Below, piece after piece: positions 57,879 to 64,000 of a DNA stretch of 64,000 bases. How positions within the stretch are numbered: the stretch's first letter is position 1; each line of letters opens with the position of its first letter. Source of the DNA: Candidatus Nomurabacteria bacterium GW2011_GWD2_36_14. Lineage in GTDB: Bacteria; Patescibacteriota; Minisyncoccia; Phycocordibacterales; UBA9973. The DNA lies in the NCBI GenBank assembly GCA_000991405.1, contig LBRL01000001.1:222172-286171 (forward strand), in the 5' to 3' direction. The position numbers were made by a program, and so were the translations under genes. The notes under the pieces are model-generated. The model saw only the letters and a list, made by a program, of their open reading frames with translations, did not search any database and was not told the DNA's origin.

Positions 57879-58045
57879 ATACAAAATATCCTTATTTTAT
57901 AAGGATATTTTGTATACTATGCATTGACAACCTTGTATTTACTGTGTCAAAATAAGCCCTAAATACAAGGATTTCTTGCTATTTTTGACAACAATCCCCT
58001 TCTGTATCATAAAAACCTTGATTTATAAGGATATTTGCTATTTAT
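57879..58045. promoter_or_regulatory. Cluster of palindromes and direct repeats downstream of secA, upstream of the 57687 gene
   Basis: Perfect 16-bp inverted repeat tacaaaatatccttat-ttt-ataaggatattttgta. The related half-sites acaaggatttcttgctattttt and ataaggatatttgctattt. The stem ccttgtattt/aaatacaagg. Confidence 0.5.
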
Positions 58046-60509
58046 CTTTTCCGTGACAGACTTTGTACTTCTTGCCAGAGCCACAAGGGCAGGGGTCGTT
58101 GCGACCGATTTTAGGAGAGTCTCTTCTTTCTGGAGTATTTCCTTCGTCACTAGAACTTAAGACTAAGGCTGGTCTTTCTTCTATGACTTGCTCATCAGAC
58201 CTTTCAGTATCTACATTCATAGTAGAAATAAGAGAGGAAACTTGCTCTTTGAAGACTATCTCCATCTCTTTGAAGAGTCGCAGGCCCTCCTTCTTGTATT
58301 CTATAAGTGGCTCTCTCTGACCATAAGCACGCAAATTCACCGAAGAGCGAGTATACTCCATGGTCTCTAGGTGTTCTACCCAAAGGTTGTCGGTAATGTA
58401 AAGGATTATCCTTCGAACTGTCTCCATGAATACAGCCTCCCCTACCTTCTCTTGCTTCTCTTTGATAGTCTCCAGTAGCTTCGGATAGTCCACAACTAGC
58501 TCATCTAGGAATTCCTGAATCTTTTTATAATCCCCTTCGAGCATTGCACGACGTCTGCCGTAGATAACATTTCTCTGGTGATTCATGACGTTGTCGTATT
58601 CAAGAGTATGCTTACGTGAGTCGAAGTGAAAGCCTTCTATCTTGGCTTGAGCACTTTCGATGGCATTCGATATGAATCTATTCTCCACAGGCTGATCCTC
58701 TGGTATGCCAAGCTTGCCCATCATACTCTTCAGTCTGTCTGATCCGAAGATGCGCATAAGATCATCTTCAAGTGAGACATAGAATTGTGTGACTCCCGGA
58801 TCCCCCTGACGGCCTGAACGCCCTCGTAGCTGGTTGTCGATACGGCGAGCTTCGTGACGCTCGGTACCTAAGACGAACAATCCCCCCAAGGATTTCACTT
58901 CTTCATAAGCCTCTTGGCTAAATGGTACTCCACCAAGCTTGATATCAACTCCACGCCCAGCCATATTGGTAGCTACAGTCACTGCCCCTAGCTTGCCCGC
59001 ATTGGCAATAATCTCGCCTTCTCTTTCATGATTCTTGGCATTCAAAATTGTATGTGGAACTCCGGCTTGTGTCAGATATGCAGAGAGGAGTTCGTTCTTC
59101 TCTATAGAAACTGTTCCAATTAAAACTGGCTGACCCTTCGCATGCAAATCTTTAACTTTTTGTGCTACTGCCAAGAGCTTACTCTTCTCTGTCTGATAGA
59201 TGAGATCGTTCAAGTCTTTTCTATTAATCTCTCTATGGGTAGGTACGACGATGACATTGAGACCATAAACTTTGAAAAATTCTTCTCTGGAAGTTTCGGC
59301 TGTTCCTGTCATACCTGAAAGCTTTTTATAAAAACGGAAATAATTCTGAAATGTGATAGATGCTACCGCTCTAGTCTCCTTCTCAATTTTCACACCTTCT
59401 TTAGCTTCTATGGCTTGGTGGAGTCCTTCGCTCCAGCGACGGCCTGGTTGCATACGGCCAGTAAATGCATCGACAATGATCACTTCACCATCTTTGACGA
59501 CATAGTCTTTGTTGTTCTCATATAGAGCTCGGGCTTTCACTGCGGTTTCTAAGTGGTGCACGTATTTGATACCCTTCTCGGTATATATGTCCTTCATGCC
59601 GAGCAAGTCTTCTGCCTTTGTAATACCTGCGTCAGTGAGTGAAATAGCCCGAAGCTTCTCATCGACGGTATAATCCTCTTCTAATTTAAGGTTCTTGGCT
59701 ATATCGGCAAAGGTATAATACAAGTCTTCAGAATCCTCGGCAGAAGAAGATATGATAAGTGGGGTTCTAGATTCATCGATAAGGATAGAGTCTACTTCGT
59801 CGACAATAGCAAAGTGATGTCCTCTTTGGACGATGTCTCCAATACTGTTGGCTAAGTTGTCTCGAAGGAAGTCGAAACCAAATTCATTGTTCGTACCGTA
59901 AGTAATGTCACAAGCATAAGCCTCGCGACGAGAGCAAGGACGAAGGAACTCATACTGAACCTTAAATGAACTCAACTCTCCCTCGTTCTCACTCACTTCA
60001 TCCTTATGTGTTGGATCATACATGTAAGATTTATTCTCAGAATTTACCACAGCAACACTGACGCCAAGAGTAGCGAAGACCGGTCCCATCCAAACTGCAT
60101 CACGACGAGAAAGATAATCGTTGACTGTAACAATGTGAACTCCGAGACCTGTAATTGAATTTAAATACGCAGGAAGGGTTGCCATGTTGGTCTTACCTTC
60201 ACCTGTCCTCATTTCTGCTATGTCGCCATTGTTGAGTGCAATACCTCCGATCATCTGAACATCATACGGACGAATATTGAAAGTGCGGACAGATGCCTCA
60301 CGAACAAGTGCGAAGGCTTCTGGTAATATGTCCTCTAGGGTATCACCCTTGGATAGTCTGTCTTTAAATTCCTGTGTTTTAGACACAAAAGAAGAATCTG
60401 TCAATTCTTTCATTGCAGGTTCTAATTCGTTGATTTTATTGACTATAGACTTCCACTTCTTTACTTGTCTGTCATTTTCGTTTCCTAATATTGATTCAAA
60501 TATACTCAT
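58038..60509 (-). CDS. secA: Preprotein translocase ATPase SecA
   Basis: DEAD motor motifs and a C-terminal zinc finger [15 protein letters not shown]. 823 aa. Confidence 0.95.
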
Positions 60510-60533
60510 ATATTTTGTATTTTAGCACAAAAA

Positions 60534-60560
60534 GAAAATCCCCGATAGAGAGGGGATTTT
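60534..60560 (-). terminator. Hairpin between the small K-rich ORF and secA
   Basis: aaaatccccgatagagaggggatttt. Confidence 0.5.
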
Positions 60561-60583
60561 CTTAAAACCAATTGGGGGTAGAA

Positions 60584-60679
60584 TTACTTCTTTCCCTTCT
60601 TTGCTTTTTTAGCTACTTTTTTAACTGCCTTTTTAGCTACTTTTTTAACTGCTTTCTTAGCCTTCTTTTTTGCTGCCAT
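60584..60679 (-). CDS. Lys/Ala-rich 31-aa peptide with an internal 24-bp tandem duplication
   Basis: Manual translation MAAKKKAKKAVKKVAKKAVKKVAKKAKKGKK. Confidence 0.4.
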   Translation of the reverse strand: MAAKKKAKKAVKKVAKKAVKKVAKKAKKGKK

Positions 60680-60829
60680 ATATTTAAAAAATTTATTATT
60701 TTTAAAAGATGTGTGACTTCACGACCTTACAAAATTTTATAAAATAATTTTTGTAAAAAAAATTAATCACACTCACACATATATTATCTAACATAAAAGA
60801 AATAACCGCAATACTTTTTCGATAAAATG

Positions 60830-60838
60830 TGTGGATAA
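60830..60838 (-). promoter_or_regulatory. Consensus DnaA box (TTATCCACA) within an extremely AT-rich ~200-bp tract
   Basis: tgtggataa on the plus strand. Confidence 0.35.
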
Positions 60839-60932
60839 CTTTTTTTCTTTTTTTAAAAAAATTTATTTTTAAATTTAATTAATTAAAAAAATATAATAAA
60901 AAATTAATTAGCCCGTATAGATTTTTTATAAT

Positions 60933-61004
60933 AGTTCTTAAGAAATGCCTTGCGCAGGCTGTCGAGCTGAGCAGAGCAAATTTTCAACAGAAAATTATGT
61001 GTGC
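60933..61004 (-). repeat. GC-rich intergenic repeat family, copy 4 (orientation B)
   Basis: agttcttaagaaatgccttgcgcaggctgtcgagctgagcagagcaaattttcaacagaaaattatgtgtgc. Confidence 0.65.
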
Positions 61005-61098
61005 ATTTCGAGAGAAGCTATTAAAAAAATCTAGAACTCTAATATATAGATAGATATGAAAAACACCATGCTTTGGACAAGGTGTTTTTCATATATTT

Positions 61099-61412
61099 GG
61101 TTTGTATCTATAAGCCGGGTTCTGTTCCCTATTGCTAGAGTAATAGATATTTATCTAGGATGTAAATTACTCCACACCTCAAGCGATTCAAATTCTGGCA
61201 TAAAGCCAGAAAGTACGATCTTGCACACGCGTAAGTATTTTGCCGTTTCACCCGAACACTAATTTTCATTAATGTTCGATTCGTCTCTGTTCGCAACTCT
61301 ACCCTTACGGGCGACGGGCGTTACCCGCTACGTTTAATCAAGCAAAAGCTTGAATATGTGCCCGGACTTTCCTCACCCTAATAAATTAAGGCGCATCTAT
61401 CCAATACAAACC
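61099..61412 (-). ncRNA. rnpB: RNase P RNA (compact, about 314 nt)
   Basis: P4 strands GAGGAAAGUCCGGGCAC (reverse complement of 61358-61378) and ACAGAACCCGGCUUA (reverse complement of 61111-61125). P1 pairs GGUUUGUAU/AUACAAACC. A TTGTCA-17-TACAAT promoter lies upstream on the minus strand. Confidence 0.8.
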
Positions 61413-61477
61413 TGATTATATTGTATCAGATGTTATAGGGCTTGACAATACCAATTTATTTTGCTATACTGTCCTTA

Positions 61478-61572
61478 GTGAGATTAAGTTCCAACGTTCA
61501 GTACAAATTTATTTTACTGTAACAATTGCATAGCAAAACCCCATCGAGCAATCGGTGGGGTTTTGTATTTTG
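61478..61572 (+). ncRNA. Candidate small RNA, divergent from rnpB
   Basis: Near-consensus promoter TTGACA-17bp-TATACT (61442-61470). A strong terminator ACCCCAUCGAGCAAUCGGUGGGGU plus a U-run follows (61535-61572). No ORF. Confidence 0.35.
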
Positions 61573-61679
61573 TACCAAAATGTTATGATATAGAGGTGGC
61601 AGTCGTTGTGTGTTTAAGTCAGCGGCTGCACTCACATATGCAATTGTGTTGGAGGTTAGCACCCGCTGACTTTAGCACA

Positions 61680-61727
61680 TAACAGAAAATCATCTCAAGA
61701 CTTGAGATGATTTTCTGTTATGTATTA
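61680..61727 (-). terminator. Long perfect hairpin, the terminator of the 61728-62975 gene
   Basis: acataacagaaaatcatctcaag-ac-ttgagatgattttctgttatgt. Confidence 0.65.
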
Positions 61728-62975
61728 TTACTTCTTCGTAGATTTCTTTTCAGTAATTTCTGGCTTTGGATCTATGCTTAAGTCACTTTCAGGTTTTGAA
61801 TTTCCAAAAAGTGCCGACATTAATTCTTTTCCTTCAATGCTTCCTTCCGGAACTTCTACAACAGCAGGCTGGTCTAAACTAGAGTAGAGCATTGTCATTG
61901 ATATCTTGAGAGCTTCAATATCTTTACTTTCTTTATCTACGATATCTCCACTCACTACTAGCTTGTGAGGAATATGGTCGAATATTCCAATCCAGATTTC
62001 TCCGTGAAAATTATTTAAAGATTCTATAATTTTGGCATAGTCGGAATCTGTTACCAAGGATAATTCTTTGCCATTTTCTGTATTCCTTAGATAGATAAGC
62101 ACCTCTTTCAAGTATGAAGCCACTCCTTCTTTGTCTAAGTCAAAGTTAAAATGATAAGACAAAGATCCATCCACTATTGCTGGTAAATGTTTTTTTGTCA
62201 TCTTGATAAGGCTAGCTCTACTCGTAATATCGTAGATCTTTTGCTTCTGTTCTGGGGTTAAATTATTCACTATTTTTGAGCCAAATCCAGAGGAAGATAT
62301 TAGTGGATTGTTGCTTATGTCACCTAGGCTAGACTTTCGAGGGAAAACGATCCACTGATTCTCAAGTGGCTTTAATGAGATACTTCCTAGATTGGGAGCT
62401 TTGAGTAACTTCACGTAGAGTGAGCCATTAACAATGCGAGAATCCATGGAAGCTTCCTCGCCATCCAATTTCAAAACGAAAGAAGTATCTGACTTTAAAT
62501 TATTCTTATCTATAAGATCAAATGAACCTTTCATGGCCAAATCAATAACTTTAAACCCTTGGTCTGTATTAGTCTCCACTCCTACATGTGATGATTCAGC
62601 AACAATATGCATATCAATAGTAGAAGCTTTAGAATTCCTTGAGGTGTCTAATGATTCTCCAAGTAATTTCGAAGGGAATATAAAATAGCCAGATCCATAC
62701 GCAAGAGCTACGCCACTTATGATAAATATTAAGATAATGATTGGCAATAGAAGGCTAGAAACCTTCTTCTTGGACTGAAGAAATATAACCTTGGGTGTTT
62801 TGTTTATTACTGGTGCAACTGTAGCTACATTTGGCTTGTTCTCAATAATATTGAAAACATCTATTATATCTCCCGCACTCCAACCTTCTGCTTCTAGCTT
62901 AGTAGCAATAGTCTTCCTATCTAGCCCAGAGGCAAGCTCATTTTTCACAAATTGTATAAGTTCTGGTGTTGTCAT
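61728..62975 (-). CDS. Hypothetical single-pass membrane protein with large extracytoplasmic domain (415 aa)
   Basis: ORF with a TM helix at about aa 75-95. Confidence 0.45.
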   Translation of the reverse strand: MTTPELIQFVKNELASGLDRKTIATKLEAEGWSAGDIIDVFNIIENKPNVATVAPVINKTPKVIFLQSKKKVSSLLLPIIILIFIISGVALAYGSGYFIFPSKLLGESLDTSRNSKASTIDMHIVAESSHVGVETNTDQGFKVIDLAMKGSFDLIDKNNLKSDTSFVLKLDGEEASMDSRIVNGSLYVKLLKAPNLGSISLKPLENQWIVFPRKSSLGDISNNPLISSSGFGSKIVNNLTPEQKQKIYDITSRASLIKMTKKHLPAIVDGSLSYHFNFDLDKEGVASYLKEVLIYLRNTENGKELSLVTDSDYAKIIESLNNFHGEIWIGIFDHIPHKLVVSGDIVDKESKDIEALKISMTMLYSSLDQPAVVEVPEGSIEGKELMSALFGNSKPESDLSIDPKPEITEKKSTKK

Positions 62976-63024
62976 AAAATTAATTTAATATAATAAATAT
63001 ACTATCTATTATAACATTAAAACA

Positions 63025-63060
63025 AAAAACATCTCAATAGCTTGAGATGTTTTTTGTTTT
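63025..63060. terminator. Bidirectional terminator-like hairpin in the 16S trailer, upstream of the 62975 gene
   Basis: aaaacatctcaatagcttgagatgtttttt. It shares CATCTCAAnnnTTGAGATG with the hairpin at 61700. Confidence 0.55.
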
Positions 63061-63299
63061 GTATTTATATAGTTTGTACCCCCACACCCATATTTTTATA
63101 ACTGTTTACAGCGAAGATTTTAATCTTCAATAAAAATATAAGTGTGGGGGTGTATCAATAATCCATTTAAGTAAAGCACTCTTTCTTTTGTTCCGTCCTA
63201 CAGGTCTTTCCCTTGTTGTCAGATTTCTTTTAGGACTTAAAATCAATGTCCATTGTGTAGTCAATTGAGCTACACAATATCGACTCAATAAGATCGTCT

Positions 63300-64000
63300 C
63301 ACTTCATAAATGAAGGTAAGAGATCGATTTCAAATTGAATTATTCCACGAACAGCTTCCGCTACCCGTGCCTTGTTACGACTTATTCCCTGTCACCGAGC
63401 TTACTGTAGGCCCTCCTTCTGGAGAGATTTCGAGTATTCCCGGCTCCCTTGAATTGACGGGCGGTGAGTACAAGACTTGAGAACGTATTCACCGCGGTAT
63501 GTCTGACCCGCGATTACTAGTAATTCCAACTTCATGGGGTCGAGTTGCAGCCCCCAATCCGAACTGGCGCAATTTTTATAGGATTCGCTCAGGGTTACCC
63601 CGTCGCTGCCCGTTGTAATTGCGATTGTATTATGTGTGTAGCCCAAGGTATCAAGGGACATGCTGACCTGGCGTCATCCTCCCCTTCCTCCCCGACCGAA
63701 ACGTACAAATAGTTATAAAGTTTTATAAAGTGTAAAGTTATAAAGTGAATGCAAAATGCATTTTACTTTATGAACTTTATGAACTTTTAACTTTCAACTT
63801 TTATCCGCTTGGGTCGGGGCAGTCTCGTGTGACACTTATAACACACGACGAGGGTTGCGTTCGTTACCCCACTTAAGGGAACAATTCAAACCACGAACTG
63901 ACGACGGCCATGCATCACCTGTCAACTAGTCTTGCGAGGGCCCTGGTTTCTCAGGGCTTTCACGTTGATTTCTAACCTTGGTAAGGTTCTTCGTTTATCG
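63300..64000 (-). rRNA. rrs: 16S rRNA gene, 3' two-fifths (continues past window end); 3' end approximate
   Basis: Reverse complement contains AAGUCGUAACAAGG, UGUACACACCGCCCGUCA and GGAGGAAGG...GAUGACGUCA (universal 1390-1500 and 1175-1200 regions). An AT-rich insertion of about 110 nt lies at 63715-63830. Confidence 0.9.

Follow-up and report, generated by a model that had tools for sequence, protein, structure and literature searches.

Genes and features of the locus

The 64-kb window (the whole stretch of DNA that was analysed) contains, from high to low coordinates, the 16S rRNA gene, a gene for a 415-aa protein, core2, s1, rnpB, a Lys-rich ORF and secA. The SecA protein (58038-60509, minus strand) was 88% identical to that of Candidatus Nomurabacteria MAGs, and its other close relatives belonged to Paceibacteria/Parcubacteria. 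A non-coding small RNA of about 95 nt, divergent from rnpB, had been proposed at this place; we refer to it as s1, and we use the name core2 for a second RNA, which adjoins s1 downstream and was absent from the original prediction. The features discussed below are as follows.

60584-60679, minus strand: Lys-rich ORF of 31 aa (MAAKKKAKKAVKKVAKKAVKKVAKKAKKGKK), between rnpB and secA
61095-61412, minus strand: rnpB, RNase P RNA of class A (RF00010, 138.5 bits)
61420-61448, minus strand: predicted rnpB promoter, TTGTCA-17-TACAAT with TG upstream
61442-61447, plus strand: predicted s1 -35 hexamer TTGACA, carried by 70 of 77 distinct homologous promoters
61462-61470, plus strand: predicted s1 extended -10, TGcTATACT, with TATACT in 71 of the 77 promoters
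61477-61572, plus strand: predicted s1 small RNA, about 95 nt, present in metagenomes and in no fewer than 42 species genomes
61478-61482, plus strand: s1 block C, GUGAG, at the extreme 5' end; predicted partner core2 CUCAC, 61631-61635
61489-61495, plus strand: s1 block B, UUCCAAC; predicted partner core2 GUUGGAG, 61648-61654
61496-61521, plus strand: s1 variable hairpin H1, between blocks B and A
61522-61531, plus strand: s1 block A, ACAAUUGCAU; predicted partner core2 AUGCAAUUGU, 61638-61647
61535-61572, plus strand: predicted s1 terminator T1, a 13-bp stem with a GCAA loop and a U-tract
61581-61589, plus strand: putative core2 extended -10, TGtTATGAT, a TATAAT-like box conserved in about 45 genomes
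61597-61726, plus strand: predicted core2 RNA, about 130 nt including the terminator; covariance-model match at 61600-61687
61605-61625, plus strand: core2 long stem, 5' strand, 21 bp, pairing with 61663-61683
61626-61662, plus strand: core2 apical domain, CUGCA-CUCAC-AU-AUGCAAUUGU-GUUGGAG-GUUAGCA, where s1 blocks C, A and B are predicted to dock
61663-61683, plus strand: core2 long stem, 3' strand, pairing with 61605-61625
61677-61723, plus strand: predicted core2 terminator T2, a 20-bp hairpin with a T-run
62975-61728, minus strand: gene for the 415-aa protein, convergent with core2
63333-64000, minus strand: 16S rRNA, with its 3' end at 63333

The near-consensus promoter claimed for s1, TTGACA-17-TATACT at 61442-61470, was found as described. 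The TATACT element is located at 61465-61470, with TG at 61462-61463 and a 17-nt spacer to the -35 hexamer, and the promoter agrees with the sigma-70 consensus at 11 of 12 positions as well as in the TG of the extended -10. The combination TTGACA-N14-TGNTATACT occurred a single time in the window, where 0.73 matches would be expected by chance even if two mismatches were allowed. In the alignments the spacer was variable in sequence, with the -35 and the extended -10 almost invariant, and the (G/A)UGAG block began 6-7 nt past the -10, at the predicted +1, in all 77 s1 promoters, which had been collected with a pattern that itself fixed the 17-nt spacing and the TG. Since it is conserved in homologues, the element is more than a chance match, and it has the make-up of a sigma-70 promoter with an extended -10. 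On the minus strand, the rnpB promoter has its -35 TTGTCA at 61448-61443 and its -10 TACAAT at 61425-61420, the latter 7 nt upstream of the Rfam 5' end of rnpB at 61412. The -35 hexamers of the two promoters overlap within CTTGACAA, as had been noticed earlier together with the suggestion that the transcripts may be co-regulated or mutually exclusive, and this back-to-back arrangement was kept in 63 of the 77 homologous promoters; on the rnpB side, the promoter of the homologues is followed by GGUUUGUA, the rnpB 5' end.

The s1 transcript is predicted to begin at A61477 or G61478 and to end within the U-tract. The GC-rich stem with a U-tract indicated previously at 61535-61572 is formed by AAAACCCCAUCGA and UCGGUGGGGUUUU (61535-61564), followed by GUAUUUUG, and compensatory changes were seen in 11 of the 13 stem pairs in the alignment of 42 genomes, in which the U-tract was nearly invariant. 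With a GC-rich hairpin placed directly before a U-tract, T1 looks like an intrinsic (Rho-independent) terminator. The fold of 61477-61574 had an energy of -32.6 kcal/mol (z = -5.7), and none of 200 shuffled sequences was as stable. According to RNAalifold, T1 was the sole conserved intramolecular structure of s1; the hairpin H1 varied from 0 to about 25 nt in relatives, was self-complementary though its sequence was unconserved, and was missing or relocated in some lineages. In the alignment of s1 only (A3), the 5' GUGAG was misaligned in some rows. The only ORF, a 26-codon TTG frame, starts inside the -35 hexamer, and the pattern of conservation was non-coding (indels were not multiples of three and the changes in stems were compensatory), which agrees with the earlier claim that the transcript contains no ORF. 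We also noticed a 23-nt direct repeat (61446-61468 and 61499-61521, 83% identity) shared by the promoter spacer and the s1 variable hairpin, which is probably a chance match in AT-rich sequence.

A BLAST search with s1 against 80 secA-anchored loci of different species placed it beside rnpB in about 35 of them, with 72-88% identity, and conservation of s1 extended to more than 40 species genomes and to about 98 metagenome contigs. The conserved promoter and 5' end, the covarying terminator and the strand signal described below strongly support the proposal of a non-coding sRNA divergent from rnpB, and it is very likely that s1 is a true small RNA gene, shared by the whole class of ultra-small CPR/Paceibacteria. 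The transcription of s1, the exact ends of s1 and core2, termination at T1 and the abundance of the RNAs are inferred from the sequence.

The second RNA, core2 (61600-61687), had an identity of 85-95% across genomes, compared with 66-90% for rnpB, and was thus the better conserved of the two. The distance between its TATAAT-like box and the core2 5' end is constant. In the long stem, 13 of 20 pairs showed compensatory changes and 89.5% of the cells were paired, and the apical domain was invariant in the alignment. A covariance model of core2 (R1) was built from 47 sequences and matched 51 of the sequences searched, i.e. the window plus 50 of the 80 secA loci, and in each case one strand scored much higher than the other (70-108 bits, versus about 30 bits); for the window the scores were 99.6 bits on the plus strand and 31 bits on the minus strand. 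The model also recovered the more distant core2 members in lineages L057 and L059-L061. Thermodynamic folding of single sequences failed to reproduce the comparative structure of core2. The T2 hairpin was always kept in relatives, with an entirely different sequence in each lineage, and it is probably bidirectional, terminating also the convergent gene for the 415-aa protein that ends at 61728. Pairing of the core2 5' leader CAGUCG with CGGCUG was considered and rejected; it was wobble-consistent in the main group and lost in distant lineages. A core2 subgroup (L049-L051 and L054), located just upstream of secA, has the apical sequence AGGCACAUAUGUUGGAG and the stem GCGGGUGAU/AUCACCCGC. No s1 partner for it was found within the 10-12 kb examined; its s1 could have been lost or be encoded at another place in the genome.

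Covariation between s1 and core2

Three blocks of s1 are complementary to the apical domain of core2. In helix A, s1 ACAAUUGCAU (61522-61531) is the reverse complement of core2 AUGCAAUUGU (61638-61647); helix B joins s1 UUCCAAC with core2 GUUGGAG, which adjoins the helix A site; and helix C joins the 5'-terminal GUGAG of s1 with core2 CUCAC. In a joint alignment running from s1 to core2 (42 genomes, MAFFT, structure not used), 93% of the cells were paired, in comparison to 35-48% when the partner columns were slid by 1-3 positions, and 27 pairs had double changes, a number that was reached by none of 500 shuffles. Three pairs of helix A were compensatory (UA in 29, AU in 8 and GC in 1; CG in 23, AU in 14 and UA in 1; CG in 37 and AU in 1). 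In helix B, 97.3% of the cells of this alignment were paired and all one-sided changes gave G.U, and further compensatory classes were CCUA:UAGG in L057 and CCAAU:AUUGG in L061. Helix C was invariant in the 42-genome alignment (A1), and in L059, L060 and L061 it took the form AUGAG:CUCAU; few independent changes stand behind this helix, and it crosses the other helices topologically. The distant lineages contributed additional compensatory classes (ACAAAUGCC:GGCAUUUGU, ACAAGUGC:GCACUUGU, ACAAAUGACU:AGUCAUUUGU and CGAAUGUCU:AGACAUUUG), and the cognate variants of helix A matched in 77 of 77 genomes, with at least seven variant classes.

The cells that were not of Watson-Crick type were G.U far more often than A.C: 87 versus 6 in helices A and B, 23 versus 3 in T1, and 71 versus 26 in the core2 stem. 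Such an excess indicates that the constraint acts on a plus-strand RNA and not on a DNA repeat. It bears on the reading in which there is no plus-strand RNA at all, so that a chance promoter, bidirectional terminators of the neighbouring genes and inverted repeats at the DNA level would account for the observations. That the region is AT-rich, with 18 promoter-like sites found by scanning versus 12.6 expected, that the minus strand folds well too (z = -8.5), and that T1 and T2 are nearly symmetric would all fit this reading. However, in the 77 distinct sequences the promoter hardly varies and keeps both its spacing and its distance to the conserved 5' block, the plus strand obtains about 100 bits from the covariance model and the minus strand about 31, and the three blocks stay paired through wobble changes, which would be mismatches in DNA; together with the G.U excess in the inter-RNA helices, this makes the reading hardly credible. 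The alignments show covariation of the three predicted s1:core2 helices, conservation of both genes, and the plus strand as the RNA strand.

Energy calculations reproduced the interaction in part. Duplex prediction recovered helices A and B in 11 lineages, and the mean predicted duplex energy was -22.9 kcal/mol for cognate and -18.0 kcal/mol for non-cognate combinations. The cognate core2 was the best-scoring partner for only 5 of 11 s1 RNAs, because most of the interface is conserved. The gain upon co-folding was modest (ddG of -12.4 kcal/mol, compared with -4.9 +/- 2.2 for shuffled sequences, the best shuffle reaching -11.4), and the cofold predictions, too, failed to reproduce the comparative structure.

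An 11-nt antisense match of the s1 seed was found in the 64-kb window only in core2. As expected of a trans-acting base-pairing sRNA, s1 carries a conserved seed whose complementarity to its partner is kept by covariation. An alternative is that s1 mainly regulates distant mRNAs and that core2 serves as its sponge or decoy, or the reverse, so that the pairing reflects titration. The architecture of s1, with a 5' seed region and a terminator, is the classic one of trans-acting sRNAs, the loop sequences of core2 are conserved beyond the needs of pairing, and core2 lies in an mRNA leader in contigs of the L083 type (secA) and the L099 type (murB). On the other hand, the window, which is part of the genome, holds no other antisense match of at least 11 nt to the s1 seeds, and both promoters are near-consensus and look constitutive, whereas a titration circuit would be expected to have regulated expression. 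We therefore regard titration as unlikely. Complementarity of s1 or core2 to 16S rRNA or rnpB did not exceed 7-mers, and a role as a snoRNA-like guide or as an external guide for RNase P was rejected on this ground.

Two separable genes and their link to secA

A metagenome scan with a pattern for core2 only, in which neither secA nor s1 played a part, yielded 105 contigs, about 98 of them true hits. In at least 12 metagenome contigs, s1 and core2 were separated by 0.36-3.2 kb of DNA that included ORFs. In these contigs s1 remained beside rnpB, core2 retained its own -10, and the helix-A variants were matched. Since the variants are matched despite such inserts, s1 and core2 would pair in trans. 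In L059 and L060 core2 likewise has its own -10, TGCTATACT, about 200 nt after T1.

These contigs also bear on whether s1 and core2 are a single RNA of about 250 nt, with T1 as an internal hairpin, the TATAAT box as a coincidence and the helices as long-range stems. Only about 25 nt lie between the two in the window, 61477-61732 folds at -104.9 kcal/mol (z = -9.3) with helix A as a long-range stem, and some read-through of T1 is plausible. Nevertheless, T1 is canonical, with a U-tract conserved everywhere, and the spacer between s1 and core2 varies in sequence and length while the -10 travels with core2. The inserts across which the pairing variants still match, and the separate -10 of core2, as in L059/L060, disfavour a single folded transcript, though some T1 read-through may occur, and we consider this reading quite improbable. 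Rather, s1 appears to be an independent transcription unit that is separable from the gene of its partner. Between s1 and core2, L059 (2874-2975) and L060 (2988-3110) have a GC-rich segment resembling the rnpB 3' end on the opposite strand, flanked in L060 by the direct repeat GTTTCTGCTCGTTTACCAATGCG; it may be the remnant of a rearrangement.

Among the contigs selected independently of secA, the dominant order was 16S convergent with core2, s1 upstream, and rnpB followed by secA divergent from s1. In distant lineages the s1-core2 unit was reversed, yet it was located 0.5-0.7 kb upstream of secA, and the upstream neighbours differed. In L083, L086, L144 and L172, core2 had no terminator and ran straight into the secA start codon; in L099, L118, L178, L181 and L168 it again lacked a terminator and preceded murB, and secA followed about 1.6 kb further on in those contigs that were long enough. 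Judging from gene order, core2 is persistently tied to secA; whatever the orientation, it lies just upstream of that gene, and it is the predicted 5' leader of secA or murB-secA in some lineages. In the lineage of the window, core2 is on the strand opposite to secA; it therefore cannot be the secA leader there and would be a free-standing RNA. The link to secA could also have been inherited as gene order, close to a group of stable-RNA genes.

Several other features of this neighbourhood were recorded. In 20 of the 21 lineages that were checked, the Lys-rich ORF immediately preceded secA, with a length of 20-42 aa and nearly always a MAAKKK start; in the window it has its own terminator-like hairpin at 60563-60532. 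It had no Pfam match, and its product might be a ribosomal, nucleoid or RNA-binding peptide that has escaped recognition. A DnaA box of perfect consensus is present at 60829-60837 (TGTGGATAA on the plus strand and TTATCCACA on the minus strand), and 20 of 21 lineages had TTATCCACA inside a very AT-rich spacer, some 150-200 nt before the Lys-rich ORF; it could be a promoter or regulatory element, or belong to an origin. The 415-aa protein had no Pfam domain, and a genome scan with it as a query found no relatives. The 3' end of the 16S rRNA reads ...GGAAUAAUUCAAUUUGAAAUCG, and about 119 nt are inserted in this rRNA when it is compared with the bacterial model; the CCUCC anti-Shine-Dalgarno sequence was absent from the 16S tail and from the downstream sequence read, and no SD-like sequence was seen upstream of the starts of secA, the Lys-rich ORF and the gene for the 415-aa protein.

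Known RNA families and a model of the s1:core2 pair

A search of 61380-61780 of the window and of 100-520 of L061 with the 4227 models of Rfam 15 (E <= 10, lax filters) gave no family for s1 or core2. The matches obtained at E <= 10 were spurious, as they came from miRNA and sRNA models, were driven by hairpins and scored far below the gathering threshold. Elsewhere in the window, Rfam models identified a LOOT RNA (RF03000, 41676-41799, plus strand, 60.8 bits) and a SAM-I riboswitch (RF00162, 37869-38000, minus strand, 48.9 bits). In the literature, of which the coverage was incomplete, we found no paper describing s1 or core2.

The size and location of core2 raise the question of whether the pair is a divergent or split version of a universal RNA: SRP 4.5S RNA, 6S RNA or a two-piece tmRNA. 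core2 is a hairpin of about 90 nt with a very conserved apex, it is better kept than rnpB and it lies next to secA; moreover, neither the 64-kb window nor 150 kb of related loci showed a gene for SRP RNA, 6S RNA or tmRNA. Because the sequences searched all came from one neighbourhood, the absence of canonical SRP, 6S or tmRNA genes from them says little, and the same holds for a regular expression for SRP domain IV, which had no convincing match in 1.45 Mb from that neighbourhood. Against such an identity, the models for SRP RNA, 6S RNA (RF00013 clan) and tmRNA had no match at E <= 10, with lax filters, in the window region or in the distant homologue L061, and ARAGORN reported four tRNAs in the window and no tmRNA, standard or permuted, as did the Rfam model for tmRNA in finding none. 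The apex of core2 is a loop of 21-27 nt without a GNRA tetraloop and without the symmetric and asymmetric loops of SRP RNA; the pair has no tRNA-like domain and no ORF for a tag peptide, as a tmRNA, whether standard or two-piece, would have. 6S RNA is about 180 nt long, with a long helix and a large central bubble, and its sequences are poorly conserved, so that sequence models alone are weak in recognising it; core2 has instead a closed 21-bp stem, supported by covariation, with a small internal loop. Taken together, we consider a split universal RNA very improbable. Comparison by eye with SRP domain IV, the k-turn, the hammerhead and group II D5 gave no fit for core2. A tracrRNA:crRNA pair was rejected, as 58000-64000 contains no repeat-spacer array, the only repeat there being a 12-nt periodicity inside the Lys-rich ORF, and a cis-antisense pair was rejected, as s1 and core2 are both on the plus strand and do not overlap.

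The comparison with described systems is nevertheless informative. Like trans-encoded sRNAs of the RybB/MicA type, s1 would have its own promoter, an unstructured conserved 5' region from +1, a strong terminator with a U-tail, and an imperfect multi-block pairing with a partner encoded elsewhere; it differs in that the partner is a structured non-coding hairpin, or an mRNA leader containing core2, and not a ribosome-binding site, that three s1 blocks would dock on one apical loop, and that the pair is conserved across the CPR class. With tracrRNA:crRNA it shares two separately transcribed small RNAs from adjacent genes and a conserved, co-evolving duplex, but not the repeat array, the nearby cas gene or the variable guide segment. 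In CopA/CopT, RNA I/RNA II and FinP/traJ, too, an unstructured segment opens the apical loop of a long hairpin and a multi-helix junction results; those pairs are cis-antisense, overlapping, perfectly complementary and plasmid-borne, whereas s1 and core2 are on the same strand, non-overlapping and chromosomal, with a complementarity kept by covariation. Two-piece tmRNA resembles the pair in that base-paired pieces make one RNA, and s1/core2 has a housekeeping location (16S, rnpB, secA); the pieces of tmRNA are, however, cut from a single precursor, while s1 and core2 each have a predicted promoter and terminator of their own. Finally, core2 resembles SRP 4.5S RNA in being an extended hairpin (about 90-110 nt) whose apical domain is highly conserved and which is encoded near a protein-export gene, and differs from it by the lack of the GNRA tetraloop, of the Ffh-binding loops and of an Rfam match at E <= 10.

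On balance, we think it likely that s1 is a genuine sRNA gene whose product pairs in trans with the core2 hairpin, and that the two make up a constitutive two-RNA module with an output linked to secA. In this model, the 5' part of s1, of about 55 nt and without a conserved structure of its own, would present the blocks GUGAG, UUCCAAC and ACAAUUGCAU, and core2, a covarying long hairpin that has a predicted promoter and terminator of its own, would receive them in its apical loop. Blocks B and A would pair with 17 contiguous bases of core2 (AUGCAAUUGUGUUGGAG), so that the variable s1 hairpin lying between them would produce a three-way junction, and block C would pair with CUCAC just 5' of the 17-base stretch. 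Docking of s1 would open a small self-paired hairpin at the tip of core2 (CUC/GAG-ACA/UGU), leading to a defined s1:core2 heterodimer. Where core2 is the leader of secA or murB-secA, s1 could act as a classical leader-binding sRNA. That the module is constitutively expressed is our best guess, which we favour because of the near-consensus promoters and the class-wide conservation, and its output is probably connected to the secA locus or to export, because core2 is just upstream of secA in every orientation. It is possible, if doubtful, that s1 and core2 together are an obligate two-piece housekeeping RNA, the scaffold of a Paceibacteria-specific RNP tied to SecA-dependent export and possibly including the Lys-rich protein. 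If so, the pair would be a new class of essential bipartite RNA and not a conditional regulator.

CPR/Patescibacteria account for a large share of bacterial diversity and have tiny genomes, and to our knowledge almost none of their RNA biology has been studied experimentally. As far as the sequence evidence goes, s1 and core2 are an undescribed and unannotated pair of co-evolving small RNAs in these bacteria, and a richer system than was originally proposed: two strongly promoted, class-wide conserved sRNAs located among 16S, rnpB and secA, neither of which is in Rfam. The covarying interface provides precise predictions for compensatory mutation, and the covariance model can serve for annotation of the family. 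Should the pair prove to be a constitutive two-piece RNA, the few housekeeping RNAs known would gain a new member; should it regulate secA, CPR bacteria would have their first defined sRNA circuit.
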